From the sequence record MT446412.1: 64,000 nt of DNA; one strand, given 5' to 3'. How positions within the stretch are numbered: the first letter of the stretch is position 1; the number at the start of each line of letters is the position of its first letter. Below, one piece after another: positions 8,636-40,844 of the stretch. This DNA comes from Escherichia virus TH41. Made by a program: the position numbers and the translations under genes. The notes beneath the pieces are model-generated. The model was not told the origin of the DNA and ran no database searches. It saw only the letters and a program-made list of their open reading frames with translations.

Positions 8636-8878
8636 ATGGAAACATTAATTGCGGGTACTGTTGTTCTTGGTGCAGGTTCTTTCTTCCTGGCTGCACTGGC
8701 ATATTTTCTGCCGTGGATTATCGCGCTACTGCGTGGAACCAAAAGTAATTGCGGAATCTTCTTTGTTAACCTCCTGTTAGGTTGGACAATGGTCGGATGG
8801 TTTATTGCATTTATCTGGGCACTCGTTGCTGAACGTAAATCAAACGCACAAGTAATTATCATCAAGGAATCAAAATGA
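8636..8878 (+). CDS. imm: superinfection immunity membrane protein Imm-like
   Basis: 80 aa, two TM helices, YFLPWIIALLRG...LLGWT.VGWFIAFIWAL; T4 imm position downstream of 43. Confidence 0.55.
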   Translation: METLIAGTVVLGAGSFFLAALAYFLPWIIALLRGTKSNCGIFFVNLLLGWTMVGWFIAFIWALVAERKSNAQVIIIKESK

Positions 8879-9018
8879 AGATAATTACAATTATTGTATT
8901 GATTGCATTTTTTAGTATGTCAATCTATTGGGCAATAATGACTCCACATATGATTCCAACTTTAATTTTGGGTTGGGTATTTTTGGGGCTCCAAGCCCGC
9001 TATGAATGTTTTAATTAG
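8875..9018 (+). CDS. small hydrophobic protein (47 aa)
   Basis: ATGA overlap with imm stop; MKIITIIVLIAFF... single TM; below the ORF-track size cutoff. Confidence 0.3.
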   Translation: MKIITIIVLIAFFSMSIYWAIMTPHMIPTLILGWVFLGLQARYECFN

Positions 9019-9026
9019 GAAGCAAA

Positions 9027-9530
9027 ATGAAAAAGTTAGCTATCGCAGCTGTTATGCTGCTATCTGGTTGTGCTTACCAGGGTGATGTTGTTAATGCCAA
9101 CGAGATTGGTAAAGCGCGAATTGCTGCAGACCGTCAGGTGCATAATGGTTCCTTTGATTTCAAAGGTGGTACTGGACTTATCTACAAACGCGACAACAAT
9201 CAATGTGGAAACAACTGCGCGAAATATGCTCAACAAGAAATTGAGTACAAACGCGAGCAAGCTGCGAAGCATGACGAAATCATTGCCAAGCTGGAAGCAG
9301 AAACCAAGCGACAAAATGACCTGGACACTGTTAACCAGATTTCACAGGTCTGCATGTCATACATCAATATGCAGATAAACATCATGCGCGCAGAAGCTTA
9401 TCAGGCAGCGGAGATGGGTTCTCCAAAAGCTAATGAGTACCGCGATATGTATCAGCGTTCTGCTCAAAACCGTCTGAGCTATATTAATAAATGTGTAGCT
9501 AAAGAGAAAGCACGCCAAGGTATTAACTGA
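9027..9530 (+). CDS. putative lipoprotein (167 aa)
   Basis: Signal peptide with lipobox LLSGC; coiled-coil-rich; occupies the slot between imm and uvsX. Confidence 0.6.
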   Translation: MKKLAIAAVMLLSGCAYQGDVVNANEIGKARIAADRQVHNGSFDFKGGTGLIYKRDNNQCGNNCAKYAQQEIEYKREQAAKHDEIIAKLEAETKRQNDLDTVNQISQVCMSYINMQINIMRAEAYQAAEMGSPKANEYRDMYQRSAQNRLSYINKCVAKEKARQGIN

Positions 9531-9637
9531 TGTTATTATTACTTCTGATTGTTGTAACAGTAATTGGTTTGCTGCTATTAGAAAAGCGTAATAAGCATTT
9601 GGCTGAAGAAAACTGGAAATGTGGTAACGTTTACTGA
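9530..9637 (+). CDS. tiny membrane peptide (35 aa)
   Basis: ATG overlaps lipoprotein stop; MLLLLLIVVTVIGLLLL...; speculative. Confidence 0.25.
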   Translation: MLLLLLIVVTVIGLLLLEKRNKHLAEENWKCGNVY

Positions 9638-34797: not shown

Positions 34798-35391
34798 ATG
34801 ATTCAGAAGAGTAAAACATGGGAGCATCTGAAAAAGATGCCCTCCTTTCTTTATACAAAGGAAGACTTAACCCCCGAATCCCTGCAAAAGATTGTAGATA
34901 CAGCCAGGTATTCATTGCGTAAAGACCCGGGTCAGGACCGTGAGCAAGTCATGCAAAGATGTATGGTGGCTACAATGGCTGAACAAGCTATTGCTAAATG
35001 GACTTCAGGTTTTTTATGTGGCGGTGATGAAGATTACGATAATCCTTATTCCTTTGCATTTGATGTAGTTTCGAAGGAAGGGGTAAGAATCGAAGTCAAG
35101 ACTCATCAGTCTGGTTCCAAATGGATATCCGTACATACTGGTCACCAGGGTGATTATCCACATGGTTACGGGGTTAATCTTGGCCCTTTTATGCAGCACA
35201 AGCTTGCTGACCTTATGATTATGTTTAATGTAAAAGAGACTCTCAAAGGTTATAGATTTAAACCAAAATTCCTTGCTGGGCCTGGTGCTTTCGTTCCTGA
35301 GTCTGGTCTTGTGCAGAAATCACAAGGGGATGGCTGGTACCTCCGTTCTTGTTCAGAAGAAAAATTTCCCTATCACCGGTTTACAAGCTGA
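34798..35391 (+). CDS. hypothetical protein with PD-(D/E)xK-like nuclease motif (about 197 aa)
   Basis: ORF 34714..35391 with ATG at 34798; FAFDVV...IEVKT resembles D...E-x-K; in the region where T4 has denB. Confidence 0.5.
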   Translation: MIQKSKTWEHLKKMPSFLYTKEDLTPESLQKIVDTARYSLRKDPGQDREQVMQRCMVATMAEQAIAKWTSGFLCGGDEDYDNPYSFAFDVVSKEGVRIEVKTHQSGSKWISVHTGHQGDYPHGYGVNLGPFMQHKLADLMIMFNVKETLKGYRFKPKFLAGPGAFVPESGLVQKSQGDGWYLRSCSEEKFPYHRFTS

Positions 35392-35403
35392 ACCAACTGT
35401 GTA

Positions 35404-35437
35404 ATAATGTCCTCATACCAACAAATGAGGACATTAT
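35404..35437 (+). promoter_or_regulatory. 13-bp stem-loop sequestering the RBS of the downstream ORF
   Basis: TAATGTCCTCAT-accaacaa-ATGAGGACATTA perfect stem; GAGGA Shine-Dalgarno lies in the 3' arm, ATG at 35439. Confidence 0.6.
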
Positions 35438-35438
35438 C

Positions 35439-35714
35439 ATGGAACACGTTACTACTCACAACATCAAACAAATTCTTATCCAAGCACTCAAAAACAACAA
35501 CATCAATTTTCCAACCCATGAAATTTTTGATGTAGCATTCAACGAAGTCCAGGGTCAAGTTGCATATTATGACGTTATCGTTTATCTTTCAGAATTTGAA
35601 GTCTACCACCTGACTGAAATTGCTTTCTATCTCTATCGTGGGACTGCAGATTTTACTGGGGTCGTGAATGCAGTTGGCGCATATAAAGAAGTTAAAGAAC
35701 AAATGCACAATTAA
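35439..35714 (+). CDS. hypothetical protein (91 aa)
   Basis: ORF 35349..35714 with ATG at 35439. Confidence 0.5.
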   Translation: MEHVTTHNIKQILIQALKNNNINFPTHEIFDVAFNEVQGQVAYYDVIVYLSEFEVYHLTEIAFYLYRGTADFTGVVNAVGAYKEVKEQMHN

Positions 35715-35724
35715 TTAAAAAGTA

Positions 35725-35754
35725 GTGTACATCAGTATGGAGTCTATGTATAAT
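35725..35754 (+). promoter_or_regulatory. early promoter cassette
   Basis: GTGTACA, 17 nt, TATAAT; leader CCATACTGAGTT. Confidence 0.6.
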
Positions 35755-35788
35755 GATTCCATACTGAGTTACCAAACTGGAGAATAAA

Positions 35789-35944
35789 ATGAAACCTGCT
35801 CAATATGCAATGACTTTATACCTTGAAGTTAATGGCGATATTACTGAATTTTTTAAATTAATGCAACAGCGCGGAAAAAGTTTTGCAGTTACTGAGCGTC
35901 AATTTTACGCTTGCCGTAAAAATACATACAATCGTTATGCGTGA
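35789..35944 (+). CDS. small hypothetical protein (51 aa)
   Basis: ATG after GGAGAA RBS directly after the cassette leader. Confidence 0.35.
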   Translation: MKPAQYAMTLYLEVNGDITEFFKLMQQRGKSFAVTERQFYACRKNTYNRYA

Positions 35945-35954
35945 GGAAAACAGA

Positions 35955-36221
35955 ATGGATATTAAATTATACTACGCCAAACACAAAGTTACAGGTATGG
36001 TTGTTGCTGCTATGTATGATGCGTCAGGTGATGGTGATGATATTACTACAGAATTGTCTCTTTCTGAATGTAAATTTCTTCGCCCGCTAGTTGCCTCAAA
36101 GCGTGATTTAAAAAAGCTTATTGATGGAAAACTGGATAATGTTGATGGCATAGATATTCTTTATGACCTTCGCACCGCATTGCACAGGGGTCTGATTGAA
36201 ATAAAAGAGGTGATATTTTGA
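35955..36221 (+). CDS. hypothetical protein (88 aa)
   Basis: ORF 35883..36221 with ATG at 35955. Confidence 0.5.
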   Translation: MDIKLYYAKHKVTGMVVAAMYDASGDGDDITTELSLSECKFLRPLVASKRDLKKLIDGKLDNVDGIDILYDLRTALHRGLIEIKEVIF

Positions 36222-36311
36222 GCAGCAAAACCTGGTGTCTTATCTGGATGTTGTGTATCCCAGTAATTTGCGTTTGTTTTAGTTTATTATTAATGAAACT
36301 TGCATAAAAGA

Positions 36312-36340
36312 GTGTACATCTCCGGTGGTTGTAGTATAAT
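36312..36340 (+). promoter_or_regulatory. early promoter cassette
   Basis: GTGTACA, 16 nt, TATAAT; leader CTATCAACTACTGGAG. Confidence 0.55.
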
Positions 36341-36360
36341 GAACCTATCAACTACTGGAG

Positions 36361-36483
36361 ATGATTATGAAAAAGTTACTTAAAGCCATTTGGAACATGT
36401 TTGTACTGTTTGTTGTCCTGAGCATTTTCCCAATTGTTTTTATGATTGACCATGTACGCGTTTACTTTAACTATTTCTTTTGA
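36361..36483 (+). CDS. small membrane peptide (40 aa)
   Basis: ATG after the leader; MIMKKLLKAIWNMFVLFVVLSIFPIVF. Confidence 0.3.
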   Translation: MIMKKLLKAIWNMFVLFVVLSIFPIVFMIDHVRVYFNYFF

Positions 36484-36493
36484 GGATAATATT

Positions 36494-36700
36494 ATGAATT
36501 ACAATTCACAATTTCAGAAATCTAATCGTCGCTTTGACTTTATGTTCAAGTTTATTGTGGCAATGATTATCCTGATTTTCATTGGTGCCATTGCAATGAT
36601 TGGTTTCCAGCTCTGGATTGCTGCTGAAGTGTTCACACAAATCCAGGATAATGGTTTGAAGTCTGTTGTTGATGTAATTTGGAATGGTGCTAAGCAATGA
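36494..36700 (+). CDS. small membrane protein (68 aa)
   Basis: ORF 36446..36700 with ATG at 36494 after GAGGA. Confidence 0.45.
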   Translation: MNYNSQFQKSNRRFDFMFKFIVAMIILIFIGAIAMIGFQLWIAAEVFTQIQDNGLKSVVDVIWNGAKQ

Positions 36701-36942
36701 AACTTTTTAAAGACATTGCAGTTGGTGAAAAATTTGTCCTGGGTAATGGTCAACAACTGATTCGCATTTCGCCTTTAATGGATAACAGTGAGCGCCCTGT
36801 GCGTACTGAAAACTGTTTGGATTATCCTTTTTATCAGAAACGTTTTGCAATTGAAAATAATACTGAGTGCTTCACAGTTGATGAACTGATGGAATCATCA
36901 GAAGAAGTTGACTTGTGGGATGGCGCGGTAGATGTAGAATAG
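36697..36942 (+). CDS. hypothetical protein (81 aa)
   Basis: ORF overlapping the previous stop. Confidence 0.5.
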   Translation: MKLFKDIAVGEKFVLGNGQQLIRISPLMDNSERPVRTENCLDYPFYQKRFAIENNTECFTVDELMESSEEVDLWDGAVDVE

Positions 36943-36971
36943 TGTACAAACTCATGGGAGCAGAGTATAAT
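36942..36971 (+). promoter_or_regulatory. early promoter cassette
   Basis: GTGTACA, 17 nt, TATAAT. Confidence 0.6.
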
Positions 36972-37009
36972 GTTCCCGTGGATAATAAAATTTAATTGAG
37001 GAAAATATT

Positions 37010-37354
37010 ATGTCTAAAGTATTTTTTGGTAATCGCAACATTATGTTCTTTAAACAGATTAGCATATCAGAAGCATTTGATTTAAGTTATTCAGGTGGTA
37101 CAAAAGCTGTTAACCTTAAAAATTTGATGTCTGCAGAATTTGCATTCTATCAGGACCCTGAAACTGGTTTCTATAAATTTATTAAGTTCCGCATGACTAT
37201 GGACCGCGATTATCGCGATGTTTATTATACAAGTTATGAAAGTGTTGTGAATGCAATTCGTGAAGCTTATGGGTTGGATTCGTTGTCTCTTGACCGTCTG
37301 TATAATGCAAGCCTTTACACCAGTGGATTTATTTTAGAACAACTACAAAAATAG
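37010..37354 (+). CDS. hypothetical protein (114 aa)
   Basis: ORF after the cassette. Confidence 0.55.
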   Translation: MSKVFFGNRNIMFFKQISISEAFDLSYSGGTKAVNLKNLMSAEFAFYQDPETGFYKFIKFRMTMDRDYRDVYYTSYESVVNAIREAYGLDSLSLDRLYNASLYTSGFILEQLQK

Positions 37355-37383
37355 TGTACAAACTCTTGGGGTCAGAGTATAAT
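37354..37383 (+). promoter_or_regulatory. early promoter cassette with -10 inside a perfect hairpin
   Basis: GTGTACA, 17 nt, TATAAT; GGGGTCA-gagtataa-TGACCCC 7-bp inverted repeat (37368-37389). Confidence 0.6.
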
Positions 37384-37427
37384 GACCCCACTGGAGCACA
37401 AAACTTTAACTTACTGAGGAAATTAAT

Positions 37428-37877
37428 ATGACTACTTACATGACCCGTCGTGACGTACTGAATGCTGGTGCTACCACTGTTGCTTATATCCATAATGGTA
37501 ATTATGTTGCCGGTCGCCCAACTAAAGAAGCTATCGCTCAACCAGGTTTTTATTTCGTGGTTAAAGGTGAAGGCGAATCACGTATTGTTGCTGCACGTTT
37601 TTATGTTGGTAACCAACGTTCACAACAAGGGTTTGACACTGTATTAAGTCACATCCGCAAACAACGTTCACAATTGTCTCGCACAATGGCGAACAATGGT
37701 GTTATCTATGAAGTCCTGTTTGTTCCAGTTTCTAAAATGAAACCCCTGACAACTGGTTATGGTAAAGGTCAAATTGCGATGGCGTTCACTCGCTCACATA
37801 GTTCTGATTGCCAGACCCTTTCAGAAATGAATCGCATGCTTGCTGATAACTTTAAATTCATTCTGCAGAGCTATTAA
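37428..37877 (+). CDS. Ndd-like protein (149 aa)
   Basis: Size and position (between rIIB and 52) as T4 nucleoid-disruption protein Ndd; recalled similarity, not verified. Confidence 0.5.
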
Positions 37878-37878
37878 T

Positions 37879-38052
37879 ATGAGACATTTCTTTACAATGG
37901 GTTACCTATTTGTTTTAGCCCTATTTGTTATTACAGGAGCCTTTATAGCCTTTGGTGCTCCATTTAATGATAAAGTTGCTGTTACTATGTGCTTTAGTGG
38001 TGGGTATATCTGTTTTGAACGCTTATGCAAAATGTGTGGTATATATGAGTAA
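37879..38052 (+). CDS. small membrane protein (57 aa)
   Basis: ORF 37840..38052 with ATG at 37879. Confidence 0.4.
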
Positions 38053-38132
38053 TTTCCATAACGAACATGTGATGCAATGGCATCGTCATAATCTGAAATT
38101 AACCGGCGTCTTCGGACGTCCTTGAGGAAAAT

Positions 38133-38288
38133 ATGAATAAATTTGTTCATGGTGTAGCTTTTTTCTGCTGGTCATTTTTATTTGTTGGAACATTAATAAC
38201 TGGTGAAACTTCAGTATTTCTGCAGTCAACAGCTCAAGGTGTATTAGCAGTTTTATCACTATTTAAATTATTGGATAAAAATGATTAA
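38133..38288 (+). CDS. small membrane protein (51 aa; T4 ac position)
   Basis: ATG after GAGGAAA RBS; MNKFVHGVAFFCWSFLFVGTL... Confidence 0.4.
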   Translation: MNKFVHGVAFFCWSFLFVGTLITGETSVFLQSTAQGVLAVLSLFKLLDKND

Positions 38289-38421
38289 GAAAATCCTGGG
38301 CTACTCGTTAGCCCTTGCTGCCTTATTGGTGGCGCTGTATTATGGAGTTGTATTTGCATTAGTGCAGGTTGTGCTTTTTATTTCTGATGCTATAATGGCA
38401 GTACATTCGTTAATCTGGTAA
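38281..38421 (+). CDS. small membrane peptide (46 aa)
   Basis: Overlaps the previous stop; MIKKILGYSLALAALLVALYYGVVFALV. Confidence 0.3.
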   Translation: MIKKILGYSLALAALLVALYYGVVFALVQVVLFISDAIMAVHSLIW

Positions 38422-38429
38422 GGTGATAT

Positions 38430-39809
38430 ATGTCTGACGTTTTAAGTATGATGTCCAAACAGTTCAGTGATTCTATGGGGACCCTTAACCCACGCAGTCT
38501 AAAAGACATTATTGACGTGGAAGCATTGTCATATGCTATCTACACTGTGGAAGGTCGTGCCATTCCAAACATGATTGATGGTTTTAAACCAGTTCACAGA
38601 TTTGTTATGGCGAGAGCATTAGACCTGGCTCGTGGTGATAAGAATAAATTCCATAAGGTTGCATCCATTGCAGGTGGCGTAGCTGATTATGGTTATCACC
38701 ATGGCGAAGCATCAGCGGAAGAAGCAACTTCTGGTTTGGTCGCAACATATAAAAATGAATATCCTATGTTTGATGGGCAAGGTAACTTTGGTTCCAGAAT
38801 GGTTCCAGAAGCATCATCAGCTCGTTATGTATTCGCAAGGGTTTCAAAGAACTTTTACAACTTGTTTAAGGATACAGAATATGCTCCGGTCCATCCTGAT
38901 GAAGAACATAAGCCTCCTGCTTTTTATCTTCCTGTTATTCCTACTGTATTACTTAACGCCACTTCTGGGATTGCTGTTGGCTTCGCTACTGATATCCTTC
39001 CTCATTCGTTCCAGGACGTCAAGGAAGCTGTTAAAGCTATCGTGGAAGGTCGTGAGCCGGTTGCTCCGAAAGTAAAATATCCAGAATTCCGTGGTAAAGT
39101 TGTTGAGCTGGAAGAGCCTGGTAAGTATGAACTTCACGGCACATACAAAATGACCTCAAGGACTCAAATGGAAATTACTGAAATCCCGGTCCAATGGAAC
39201 CTGGAAAAATATACAAGTAAAATCCTGGACCCACTGGAAGAGAAAGGTTTTATCACCTGGAAAGATAACTGCGGCGAGCATGGTTTTGGGTTTAAGATTA
39301 AATTCCGCAAAGAATACAAGTTGGATGGCACTGAAGAAGAGAATCATGAGAAAATCATGAAAGACTTTGGTCTGATTGAGAAACTCTCCCAGAACTTAAC
39401 TGTGCTTAATCACAAAGGCAAATTAGCTGAATACACCAACACGCTTGACCTGATTCGCGATTTCGTTGATGTCCGTAAGACCTATGTTCAAGTGCGAATT
39501 GACAGTAAGATTAAAGAAACTGAAGCGGCATTTAAACTGGCCCGGGCAAAAGTCTTCTTTATTAAAGAAGTGATTGATGGTAAGGTTGTTATCCAGGGGA
39601 AACCTCGTAAGAAGTTGATTGAGGAACTCCAGGCGAGTGAAATATATGGCGATTATGCAGAGAAGTTAGTGGCGATGAACATCTACCATATGACCTCTGA
39701 TGAAGCCAAGAAGCTTGCAGACGAAGCAAAGGCTAAGAAAGCTGAGCATGAGTACTGGAAGACAACTGATGTTAAAACTGAATACCTTAATGATTTGGAG
39801 GCTCTATGA
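38430..39809 (+). CDS. 52: DNA topoisomerase II medium subunit gp52 (GyrA-like)
   Basis: 459 aa; breakage-reunion domain blocks; size and position as T4 gp52. Confidence 0.93.
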   Translation: MSDVLSMMSKQFSDSMGTLNPRSLKDIIDVEALSYAIYTVEGRAIPNMIDGFKPVHRFVMARALDLARGDKNKFHKVASIAGGVADYGYHHGEASAEEATSGLVATYKNEYPMFDGQGNFGSRMVPEASSARYVFARVSKNFYNLFKDTEYAPVHPDEEHKPPAFYLPVIPTVLLNATSGIAVGFATDILPHSFQDVKEAVKAIVEGREPVAPKVKYPEFRGKVVELEEPGKYELHGTYKMTSRTQMEITEIPVQWNLEKYTSKILDPLEEKGFITWKDNCGEHGFGFKIKFRKEYKLDGTEEENHEKIMKDFGLIEKLSQNLTVLNHKGKLAEYTNTLDLIRDFVDVRKTYVQVRIDSKIKETEAAFKLARAKVFFIKEVIDGKVVIQGKPRKKLIEELQASEIYGDYAEKLVAMNIYHMTSDEAKKLADEAKAKKAEHEYWKTTDVKTEYLNDLEAL

Positions 39810-39901
39810 GTTTTGGAGTTGAGTTTGCATTGCTTTGTATTTTTGCGGCAATCGCAGGTGTGATTGTTGGTATGTTTATTGGCAATAAGATAGATAAAGA
39901 C

Positions 39902-39926
39902 TAGGACCCTTCGGGGTCCTTTTTAT
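39902..39926 (+). terminator. intrinsic terminator (TTCG tetraloop)
   Basis: AGGACCC-TTCG-GGGTCCT followed by TTTTT. Confidence 0.7.
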
Positions 39927-39938
39927 TTTAAAAAAGTA

Positions 39939-39968
39939 GTGTACAAGTCCCTTGACCTGATGCATAAT
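39939..39968 (+). promoter_or_regulatory. early promoter cassette
   Basis: GTGTACA, 17 nt, CATAAT; leader CCATACTGAGTT. Confidence 0.6.
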
Positions 39969-40017
39969 GATTCCATACTGAGTTACACAATGAATCACAA
40001 AAACTTTGGAGAATAAA

Positions 40018-40233
40018 ATGTTTACTGCACAACAGAATGAAGGTCAAGAATACATTAACGCTAAATTCAAATCTAATAAAGAAGCTTGCTATTACTACTT
40101 TGACATGTTCAAACTGGCAAACTCTAAAGAAGAACGTAAACAAGCGATTGATGTGATTGTTTCTACTTCCCATATGAAACGTACTGTGGTACAATCATAT
40201 GCATCAAATTATATGAAATCTATTAAGGGATAA
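40018..40233 (+). CDS. hypothetical protein (71 aa)
   Basis: ORF 40006..40233 with ATG at 40018. Confidence 0.5.
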   Translation: MFTAQQNEGQEYINAKFKSNKEACYYYFDMFKLANSKEERKQAIDVIVSTSHMKRTVVQSYASNYMKSIKG

Positions 40234-40235
40234 TT

Positions 40236-40844
40236 GTGAACAAGTTAAATTATATCGTTAAATGCTCCCAGAATGCTCTACATGAGACTGATGTTAATGC
40301 TCTGGTGTTTGTATACAAAAACAACTTCGTGCGTCCTGAGGTTGTTTTAGGCCAGCAGAACACGTCAATTGATAGCGTGCAGACATTGTTGAATAACAAC
40401 TATGTTGAAGCTTCTGGTGATGGTTTGATGGTTACAGAAAAAGGTGTTGACCTTATTCTGGATGCAGCTGAACTTTGGGCAAATGAAAATAATCCTGACC
40501 TTCTGGAAGTGAAGAAGACAAGAACAAAACGCGGTGTGACTGATGAAATGGAAGCGACTGCAGAATATATCAAAGAGCAATTGTTGTCTATTGGTATTGA
40601 CTTTAAGAGCATTTCAGAAGACCGCAGCAATCTGATTGTGAAGTTCAAGCGTGTCAAGACATTAAAACAGATTGATGTTCGTCGTGATGGTCAGATTCGC
40701 GTGCATGCGTATAATACTGAACAAAAGATAGTAAAACAGTTTACAGACGTGGGATTTAGCGTTAAAGTAGGTGGATTGAATACCTACATTGACAATCATA
40801 TGTCAACTGAAAACATTCAACATGTTATTAACATCTTAAAGTGA
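40236..40844 (+). CDS. motA: middle-transcription activator MotA
   Basis: 202 aa, GTG start; ASGDGLMVTEKGVDLI and C-terminal QFTDVGFSVKVGG blocks resemble T4 MotA. Confidence 0.75.
   Translation: MNKLNYIVKCSQNALHETDVNALVFVYKNNFVRPEVVLGQQNTSIDSVQTLLNNNYVEASGDGLMVTEKGVDLILDAAELWANENNPDLLEVKKTRTKRGVTDEMEATAEYIKEQLLSIGIDFKSISEDRSNLIVKFKRVKTLKQIDVRRDGQIRVHAYNTEQKIVKQFTDVGFSVKVGGLNTYIDNHMSTENIQHVINILK

Follow-up and report, generated by a model that had tools for sequence, protein, structure and literature searches.

The 64,000-nucleotide stretch of Escherichia virus TH41 (sequence record MT446412.1) that we analyzed, hereafter the window, carries a run of very small genes on its + strand between ndd and gene 52. 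We identified these genes as orf57, stp, ac, and 52.1, and the best overall reading is that they probably belong to an early operon with translational coupling, whose products are accessory proteins of the inner membrane, all of them small, together with the peptide Stp. An earlier note, made from the sequence alone, had described the region as three consecutive open reading frames (ORFs) for micro membrane proteins immediately upstream of gene 52. The three ATG ORFs are present on the + strand at 37879-38052 (57 amino acids, aa), 38133-38288 (51 aa), and 38281-38421 (46 aa), and they lie directly 5' of a 459-aa ORF (38430-39809) whose product is 66.7% identical to T4 gp52. They are not strictly consecutive, as stp (38045-38125) sits between the 57-aa and 51-aa ORFs. 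Because Stp is soluble and acts on a cytoplasmic restriction enzyme, the cluster does not consist purely of membrane proteins.

Compared by megablast with GenBank phages, positions 37400-38500 matched Escherichia phage UPEC01 (Straboviridae, Tevenvirinae, Gaprivervirus) at 99.5% identity from end to end, and weaker matches were found in 231 T-even-type phages. The annotated neighbors in UPEC01, VR7, and VR25 are denB, several ndd.x ORFs, ndd, gene 52, and motA. All of the small genes had been catalogued before, ac, stp, and 52.1 as named T4 genes and orf57 as a family in PHROGs, and with a 99.5% identical genome in GenBank the discovery value of the cluster is small. The earlier note's idea of a repertoire of small membrane proteins agrees with the published picture of T4 and so is not new, and it left out the soluble stp. 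Small membrane-targeting early proteins of T4 are described in a preprint (bioRxiv 10.1101/2025.06.30.662393, citing Miller et al.), and the drug-sensitivity phenotype that the note proposed to look for is the one classically described for T4 ac (bioRxiv 10.1101/2025.06.30.662393).

Identification of the small genes between ndd and gene 52

We regard the gene identity and coding status of the small ORFs as almost certain. That orf57, ac, and 52.1 are genuine follows from full-length family matches, synteny, and the ratio of nonsynonymous to synonymous substitution rates (dN/dS), not from hydrophobicity. Across the three ORFs, dN/dS ranges from 0.07 to 0.44 (Nei-Gojobori, against orthologs), and dS reaches ~0.9; synonymous sites are therefore free to change. 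In 17 annotated phages and in 26 IMG/VR loci, the latter retrieved with 52.1 as the query, ndd and 52 flank the same families; the hosts of the compared phages and loci include Escherichia, Klebsiella, Serratia, and others. A search for related loci with gp52 as the query returned only 4 close loci.

The first gene, orf57 (37879..38052, +), encodes a predicted 57-aa inner-membrane protein that matches phrog_5941 (E = 1e-22) over residues 1-57 of 57. By tblastn it was found in 248 phage records, mostly T4-like phages of Klebsiella and Escherichia, and always adjoining ndd. Among 1.84 billion representative proteins, a profile search yielded ~10 clusters, all of 57-61 aa, and a homologous-protein search with orf57 yielded only 4 near-identical clusters. 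One cluster of this family (P0004, from Escherichia phage vB_EcoM_ESCO10) is named 'sliding clamp' at its source and is evidently mislabeled. The dN/dS of orf57 is 0.15-0.44. A predicted transmembrane (TM) helix (about residues 7-25) is followed by a loop, G26-x-P28, and then by a short hydrophobic helix, the second in the protein, and an F46-E47-R48 motif is conserved; the AlphaFold 2 (AF2) model was of low confidence, with a predicted local distance difference test (pLDDT) score of 61. A zinc- or disulfide-binding Cys motif was considered and rejected, as the cysteines vary across the family.

The gene overlooked in the earlier note, stp (38045..38125, +), encodes a soluble 26-aa peptide that matches PF08133, the anticodon nuclease activator family (55.3 bits; cutoff, 25), and phrog_6763 (E = 2e-19). 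Stp is not hydrophobic, and its dN/dS is 0-0.21. In UPEC01 (MW233709), a 52-aa coding sequence (CDS) at 66597-66755, corresponding to window positions 37967-38125, extends the stp frame upstream and replaces both orf57 and stp. We regard this gene model as a misannotation and favor orf57 plus a 26-aa stp, because the upstream extension lacks an ATG in JS98 and Shfl2 and because stp stands directly after ndd in T4, VR7, and VR25. The gene-model correction would thus add stp and replace the spurious 52-aa frame of UPEC01 with orf57 and stp.

The third gene, ac (38133..38288, +), encodes a 51-aa homolog of T4 Ac from a divergent allele group. It matches phrog_2501 (E = 2.9e-23) over residues 1-49 of 51, the same profile that T4 Ac matches at an E value of 2.2e-25; together with the 51-aa length and the same 8-nucleotide (nt) overlap with 52.1, this bears out the proposal that the middle ORF is the counterpart of T4 ac. 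The start codon is preceded by a strong Shine-Dalgarno sequence, GAGGA. The dN/dS of ac is 0.15-0.18, reaching 0.75 only for one near-identical pair of other phages with few changes. Ac consists of a hydrophobic helix at about residues 7-23, the polar loop TGETSVFLQSTAQG, and a second, more amphipathic helix. The loop is conserved as TGETSVFxQAxAQG; W13, T20, V28, Q31, and Q35 are invariant in the alignment, and G36 of the window protein aligns with T4 G38. A two-helix ESMfold model published for T4 Ac is consistent with this layout (bioRxiv 10.1101/2025.06.30.662393). Window Ac is 82% identical to the 'acridine resistance protein' of Tequatrovirus phages wV7 and BECP11, and its allele group is shared with wV7, Shfl2, and, more distantly, Aplg8 copy 1. 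In some Tequatrovirus phages, such as Aplg8 (L011, 998-1322), two diverged ac genes stand in tandem, with the window-type allele 5' of the T4-type one.

The last of the small genes, 52.1 (38281..38421, +), encodes a 46-aa, nearly wholly hydrophobic protein that matches PF24129 (DUF7396; 71.8 bits; cutoff, 27) over residues 1-46 of 46 and phrog_3595 at an E value of 1.8e-23. Residues G22, L32, F33, D36, I38, S43, and L44 are invariant, and dN/dS is 0.07-0.13 across genera. Identity to T4 is 87% for gp52.1, compared with 67% for gp52, 60% for Ndd, 56% for Ndd.4, 41.5% for Ac, and 32% for MotA. Thus, 52.1 is the most conserved gene of the neighborhood, even though the T4 gene is dispensable in the laboratory. 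It lies immediately 5' of gene 52 in all 43 comparison loci (26 of which were retrieved with 52.1 as the query), and in all 19 loci with listed ORF coordinates its start codon overlaps the end of the gene before it, stop codon included; hmmsearch coordinates of 26 further loci are compatible with the same overlap. When modeled from the single sequence, AF2 predicted one helix spanning residues 2-45 (44 residues; pLDDT, 93), a model from which a hairpin and a single span cannot be told apart.

The earlier note had assigned a single hydrophobic helix to each of the three ORFs. A strong hydrophobic stretch is indeed present in each, with best 19-residue Kyte-Doolittle (KD19) scores of 2.34, 1.93, and 2.55 for the 57-, 51-, and 46-aa products, respectively. 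A single helix for each is doubtful: two hydrophobic segments are seen in Ac and also in the 57-aa protein, and only gp52.1 was modeled as one continuous helix, from a single sequence.

A shuffled array of small genes around 52.1

Judged from these sequences, the slot between ndd and gene 52 is a shuffled array in which four unrelated micro-protein families are arranged around an invariant 52.1. We designated the families A (orf57), B (Ac), C (the VR7 gp281-like family, phrog_9347), and D (52.1). The order is A-stp-B-D in the window and UPEC01, stp-B-D in T4, wV7, and phage 212, stp-C-D in VR7 and VR25, A-stp-C-D in UPEC07, and A-stp-C-B-D in TH40. JS98 has A-stp-B-(remnant)-C-D, VR5 and CHI14 have A-C-D, EcS1 has A-B-C-D, Shark_ER15 has A-B-D, KMB38 has B-D, and Aplg8 has stp-B-B'-D, while the IMG/VR loci L041-L043 have A-D. 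All slot combinations were seen even inside Gaprivervirus. Family D was found in every locus examined, 26 of these having been retrieved with D as the query.

The family C proteins (phrog_9347; 51-55 aa, two TM helices) occupy the same slot 5' of 52.1 and often replace Ac. They are absent from the window and have no detectable homology with Ac (hhalign probability, <1%). Ac and its unrelated replacements often end in Asn-Asp because the overlap with the 52.1 start codon imposes ND. A common paralogous origin of A, B, C, and D was rejected (hhalign, 0.2-0.8% for alignment pairs A2/A3, A2/A4, A3/A4, and A5/A2). A fixed order A-stp-B-C-D was likewise discarded, as TH40 has C before B, and the rule that Ac or phrog_9347 always stands 5' of 52.1 held in the first 17 phages and was broken by L041-L043 (ndd-A-D-52).

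The presence or absence of orf57, which is missing from T4, VR7, and VR25, corresponds between the window and VR7 to a precise 166-bp indel. At its ends stand the two copies of an imperfect direct repeat, ATATGAG(A/T)(C/A)ATTTC, one in the start region of orf57 (37872-37892) and the other in that of stp (38038-38058), and deletion between the repeat copies reproduces the VR7/VR25 junction exactly, ndd followed by stp.

In JS98 (L025), a pseudogene remnant lies at 1199-1340 between the Ac-like and gp281-like genes. In it, a 5' piece of 52.1 carrying a frameshift joins, at the microhomology GAGTAAT, the 3' portion of a T4-type stp; we read the remnant as the footprint of an unequal recombination by which an stp-B-D cassette came to be stacked on an stp-C-D one. 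This description of the slot may help work on the functions of Ac and gp52.1, including the hypothesis that Ac blocks drug efflux.

A predicted early transcription unit with coupled genes

A promoter scan identified a putative early-type promoter, TGTACA-N17-TATAAT, at 37355..37383 (+), with the stem-loop GGGGTCA...TGACCCC across its -10 element. This promoter is the likely start of the operon. It resembles the mobile promoter/stem-loop cassettes (PeSL) of T4-like phages (PMC4122927). The motif TGTACA-N16/17-TATAAT recurs on the + strand at 35726, 36313, 36943, and 39940, each time 5' of a gene. A terminator scan and reading of the sequence placed a strong intrinsic terminator, AGGACCC-TTCG-GGGTCCT followed by a T-run, at 39903..39920 (+), and the next early-type promoter after it is the one at 39940. 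Between 37355 and 39903 there are only weak terminator-like matches, two in 52.1 (38316-38334, +; 38314-38298, -) and two in orf32 (39842-39858 and 39846-39869), all four within coding sequence. A search of positions 35000-40500 against Rfam gave only sub-threshold chance matches.

A single early transcript would accordingly run from the promoter at 37355 to the terminator at 39903 and carry ndd-orf57-stp-ac-52.1-52-orf32. The first gene of this unit, ndd (37428..37877, +), encodes the nucleoid disruption protein; its product is 60.5% identical to T4 Ndd, and it is so annotated in UPEC01, VR7, and VR25. Gene 52 (38430..39809, +) encodes the DNA topoisomerase II medium subunit, as indicated by its identity to T4 gp52 and by the annotations. 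The last gene, orf32 (39806..39904, +), is a 32-aa single-TM ORF (phrog_16377, E = 1.7e-9; KD19, 2.80) that is annotated in UPEC01 and VR7 and overlaps the gene 52 stop by 4 nt.

The genes are closely packed. At the ndd/orf57 junction the stop is separated from the ATG by 1 nt (TAA-t-ATG), and orf57 and stp share an 8-nt overlap, ATGAGTAA, read in the sequence. A 7-nt spacer containing GAGGA separates stp from ac, and ac and 52.1 share the 8-nt overlap ATGATTAA. Between the 52.1 stop (38421) and the gene 52 ATG (38430) lie 8 nt with AAGGTGA, and gene 52 and orf32 have ATGA in common. Stop/start coupling of this kind would hand translation on from gene to gene. We consider an operon with translational coupling likely.

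A candidate MotA-type middle promoter for gene 52 (TGCTT, 14 nt, TATAAT; 38372..38396, +) lies within the 52.1 coding sequence, ~35 nt 5' of the gene 52 ATG. TGCTT is retained in 11 of 12 phages. The 52.1 codons V31 (GTG) and L32 (CTT) show no synonymous change in 10 phages, whereas other Leu and Val codons vary.

Expression, function, and alternative readings

In the proposed mechanism, the hydrophobic products would insert in the inner membrane of the host, and basic residues at positions 2-4 suggest that their N-termini would face the cytoplasm. By homology with T4 Ac, Ac would cause acridines and certain other drugs to build up in the infected cell, while cytoplasmic Stp would inhibit type Ic restriction enzymes. 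gp52.1 and orf57 would be accessory modulators of host inner-membrane complexes, dispensable in laboratory hosts. By analogy with T4, the chances that Ac raises drug accumulation in this phage appear about even, and it is doubtful that it would act specifically by blockade of an efflux pump.

Much of this rests on work with T4. Deletion or mutation of T4 ac leads to acriflavine resistance, as does the G38R change; expression of ac lowered E. coli counts by ~3 logs with acriflavine and by ~4 logs with ampicillin, and phage titers on drug-free plates were unchanged (bioRxiv 10.1101/2025.06.30.662393). The same preprint, whose survey was limited to homologs at 93-100% nucleotide identity, proposes that Ac inserts in the membrane and blocks AcrAB-TolC (bioRxiv 10.1101/2025.06.30.662393; cited in PMC13250531), and it also gives an older proposal for T4 Ac, increased permeability (bioRxiv 10.1101/2025.06.30.662393). 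The T4 52.1, ac, and stp transcripts are classed as early (PMC9697503 Table S2). In a T4 dCas13d knock-down, 52.1, ac, stp, ndd, and motA.1 were scored 'Not Fit' and gene 52 'Fit' (PMC11879866 supplement), and T4 remains viable when the segment from gp52.1 to rIIB is deleted (PMC9712115 Table 1). The main texts on HIDEN-SEQ and CRISPRi-ART do not mention these small genes. A PDB search returned no meaningful structural relatives for Stp, Ac, 52.1, or orf57, and NCBIfam has no family for any of them.

Several points weigh against reading the cluster as an early operon of inner-membrane accessory proteins plus Stp. The T4 52.1, ac, and stp proteins went undetected by mass spectrometry (PMC9697503 Table S2). 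The membrane topology is predicted from hydropathy and from AF2 models of low information. Window Ac belongs to another allele group than T4 Ac, with which it shares 41.5% identity, and the tandem alleles of Aplg8 suggest that the two Ac groups are not equivalent. The efflux-pump model is a hypothesis put forward in a preprint, and the Ac family profile gave no match at E <= 1 against all PDB chains. Finally, the promoter embedded in 52.1 could account for part of the conservation of this gene at the DNA level.

A reasonable alternative, although we consider it unlikely, is that the small membrane proteins are counter-defense or defense-triggering accessory genes for particular wild hosts. They might, for example, neutralize membrane-embedded abortive-infection effectors or exclusion, in which case the acridine phenotype would be a side effect. 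Their neighbor stp is a proven anti-restriction gene that also triggers PrrC, and within one genus the slot content varies in all combinations, with A present or absent and with B, C, or both. Such turnover is typical of host-range and anti-defense loci. The Ac alleles are strongly diverged (41.5%) where the neighboring genes retain 60-87% identity, and the T4 homologs are all dispensable on laboratory E. coli. However, gp52.1 is under strong purifying selection (dN/dS ~0.1; 87% identity to T4), unlike an arms-race gene, and we know of no defense system that is affected by Ac, gp52.1, or orf57.

A more speculative reading, to which we attach a low probability, is that gp52.1 may be the constant core of a small inner-membrane complex for which the Ac alleles, phrog_9347, and orf57 serve as interchangeable specificity subunits. 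It is compatible with an invariant 52.1 whose translation is always coupled to that of the variable gene in front of it, whichever this may be. If this were true, each variable subunit would aim the complex at a different envelope machine (e.g., the AcrB pump) or at a membrane-based defense; the stop/start overlaps would set stoichiometry, and microhomology cassette shuffling would tune the phage to its hosts.

It is very improbable that the products act as toxins of a holin-like or type I toxin-like kind that damage membranes in general and depolarize the host early. Their very small size and strong hydrophobicity recall Hok/TisB-type toxins, and their T4 counterparts are expressed early. However, the drop in E. 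coli counts on Ac expression was seen with acriflavine or ampicillin, with drug-free phage titers unchanged, and no similarity to PDB chains or to annotated toxin or holin families was found in Pfam, NCBIfam, or PHROGs. Early depolarization would also be expected to harm a phage that needs host energy for ~25 minutes. Nothing was found in favor of the membrane depolarization that the earlier note had raised, and knock-down of T4 52.1, ac, stp, and ndd had no fitness effect.

Hydrophobicity on its own proves little about small genes in this genome, which has a G+C content of 40%. Among the ATG ORFs of 30-70 aa in the six frames of the window, 38 of 287 (13%) reach KD19 >= 1.9, compared with 6.9 of 259 small ORFs (2.7%) in shuffled sequence, and many of those that pass lie out of frame within real genes, such as 37462-37647 within ndd. 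Hydrophobic small ORFs of this genome should therefore be believed only with comparative support. That some of the ORFs discussed here are chance hydrophobic frames in AT-rich DNA, or that the 52-aa UPEC01 model (37967-38125), which GenBank MW233709 annotates while omitting orf57, is true, can be dismissed as the least probable reading of all: orf57 is full length (57-61 aa) in the 248 phage records and has a dN/dS of 0.15-0.44, Ac and 52.1 match curated families, the upstream extension of stp has no ATG in JS98 and Shfl2, and stp begins directly 3' of ndd in VR7, VR25, and T4. For orf57, ac, and 52.1, the comparative data rule out the chance-frame reading.

Other small ORFs in the window

Upstream of ndd, small membrane ORFs span 36218..36700, with T4 counterparts and with annotations in UPEC01 and VR25. 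They are an ndd.6-like ORF (36218-36307, +; phrog_8851), an ndd.4-like ORF homologous to T4 ndd.4 (36361-36483, +; phrog_3098), and an ndd.3/2a-like ORF (36494-36700, +; phrog_2401). A second group of envelope-directed small genes is located at 8636-9637, 3' of DNA polymerase. It comprises imm (8636-8878), a 47-aa two-segment ORF (8875-9018; phrog_3610), a 167-aa ORF (9027-9530; phrog_1754) whose N-terminus, up to Cys15, is lipoprotein-like, and a 35-aa ORF (9530-9637) that matches no family and was found in just 11 Gaprivervirus records. Among the further tiny ORFs that the earlier note had listed as TM proteins, family membership thus holds for those at 36361-36483, 39806-39904, and 8875-9018, all of which match PHROGs, and not for that at 9530-9637.

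Comparison with known systems

The counterpart region of T4 has the order rIIB-denB-ndd.6...ndd-stp-ac-52.1-52-motA.1-motA. In the window, orf57 stands between ndd and stp, whereas in T4 stp directly follows ndd, and orf32 holds the position of T4 motA.1. T4 gp52.1 (NP_049876) is also 46 aa long, is 87% identical to window gp52.1, lies directly 5' of 52 with its start overlapping the preceding stop, and shows no material difference from the window protein.

T4 Stp inhibits type Ic restriction enzymes (EcoprrI and EcoR124I) and, by doing so, unmasks PrrC, an anticodon nuclease (PMC3014915). Window Stp is likewise 26 aa long, is 77% identical to T4 Stp, and is encoded directly 5' of ac. Fifteen of the 18 N-terminal residues implicated in the EcoprrI interaction are identical; residues 12, 13, and 15 differ (F/W, Y/H, and N/H). 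Loss-of-function mutations of T4 Stp cluster in residues 4-14 (PMC3014915). Because the changed residues fall in or next to this region, activity of window Stp on EcoprrI and PrrC is not guaranteed.

T4 Ac (NP_049877) resembles window Ac in its length of 51 aa, its position between stp and 52.1, the 8-nt overlap ATGATTAA, and the arrangement of two helices around a polar loop. The two proteins are, however, only 41.5% identical, and the T4 loop reads IDASSVFSQ where the window protein has TGETSVFLQ.

A functional analogy may also be drawn with E. coli AcrZ, a 49-aa inner-membrane protein with one TM helix that binds AcrB and reportedly supports the export of some substrates. We take the PDB set to contain AcrZ structures (AcrZ-containing AcrB), so the lack of a match to the Ac profile suggests that Ac has no sequence similarity to AcrZ. 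What the two would share is a similar size, the inner membrane, and, under the published Ac hypothesis, the same pump, AcrAB-TolC. AcrZ has one TM helix, whereas Ac has two hydrophobic segments, and Ac is proposed to block export.

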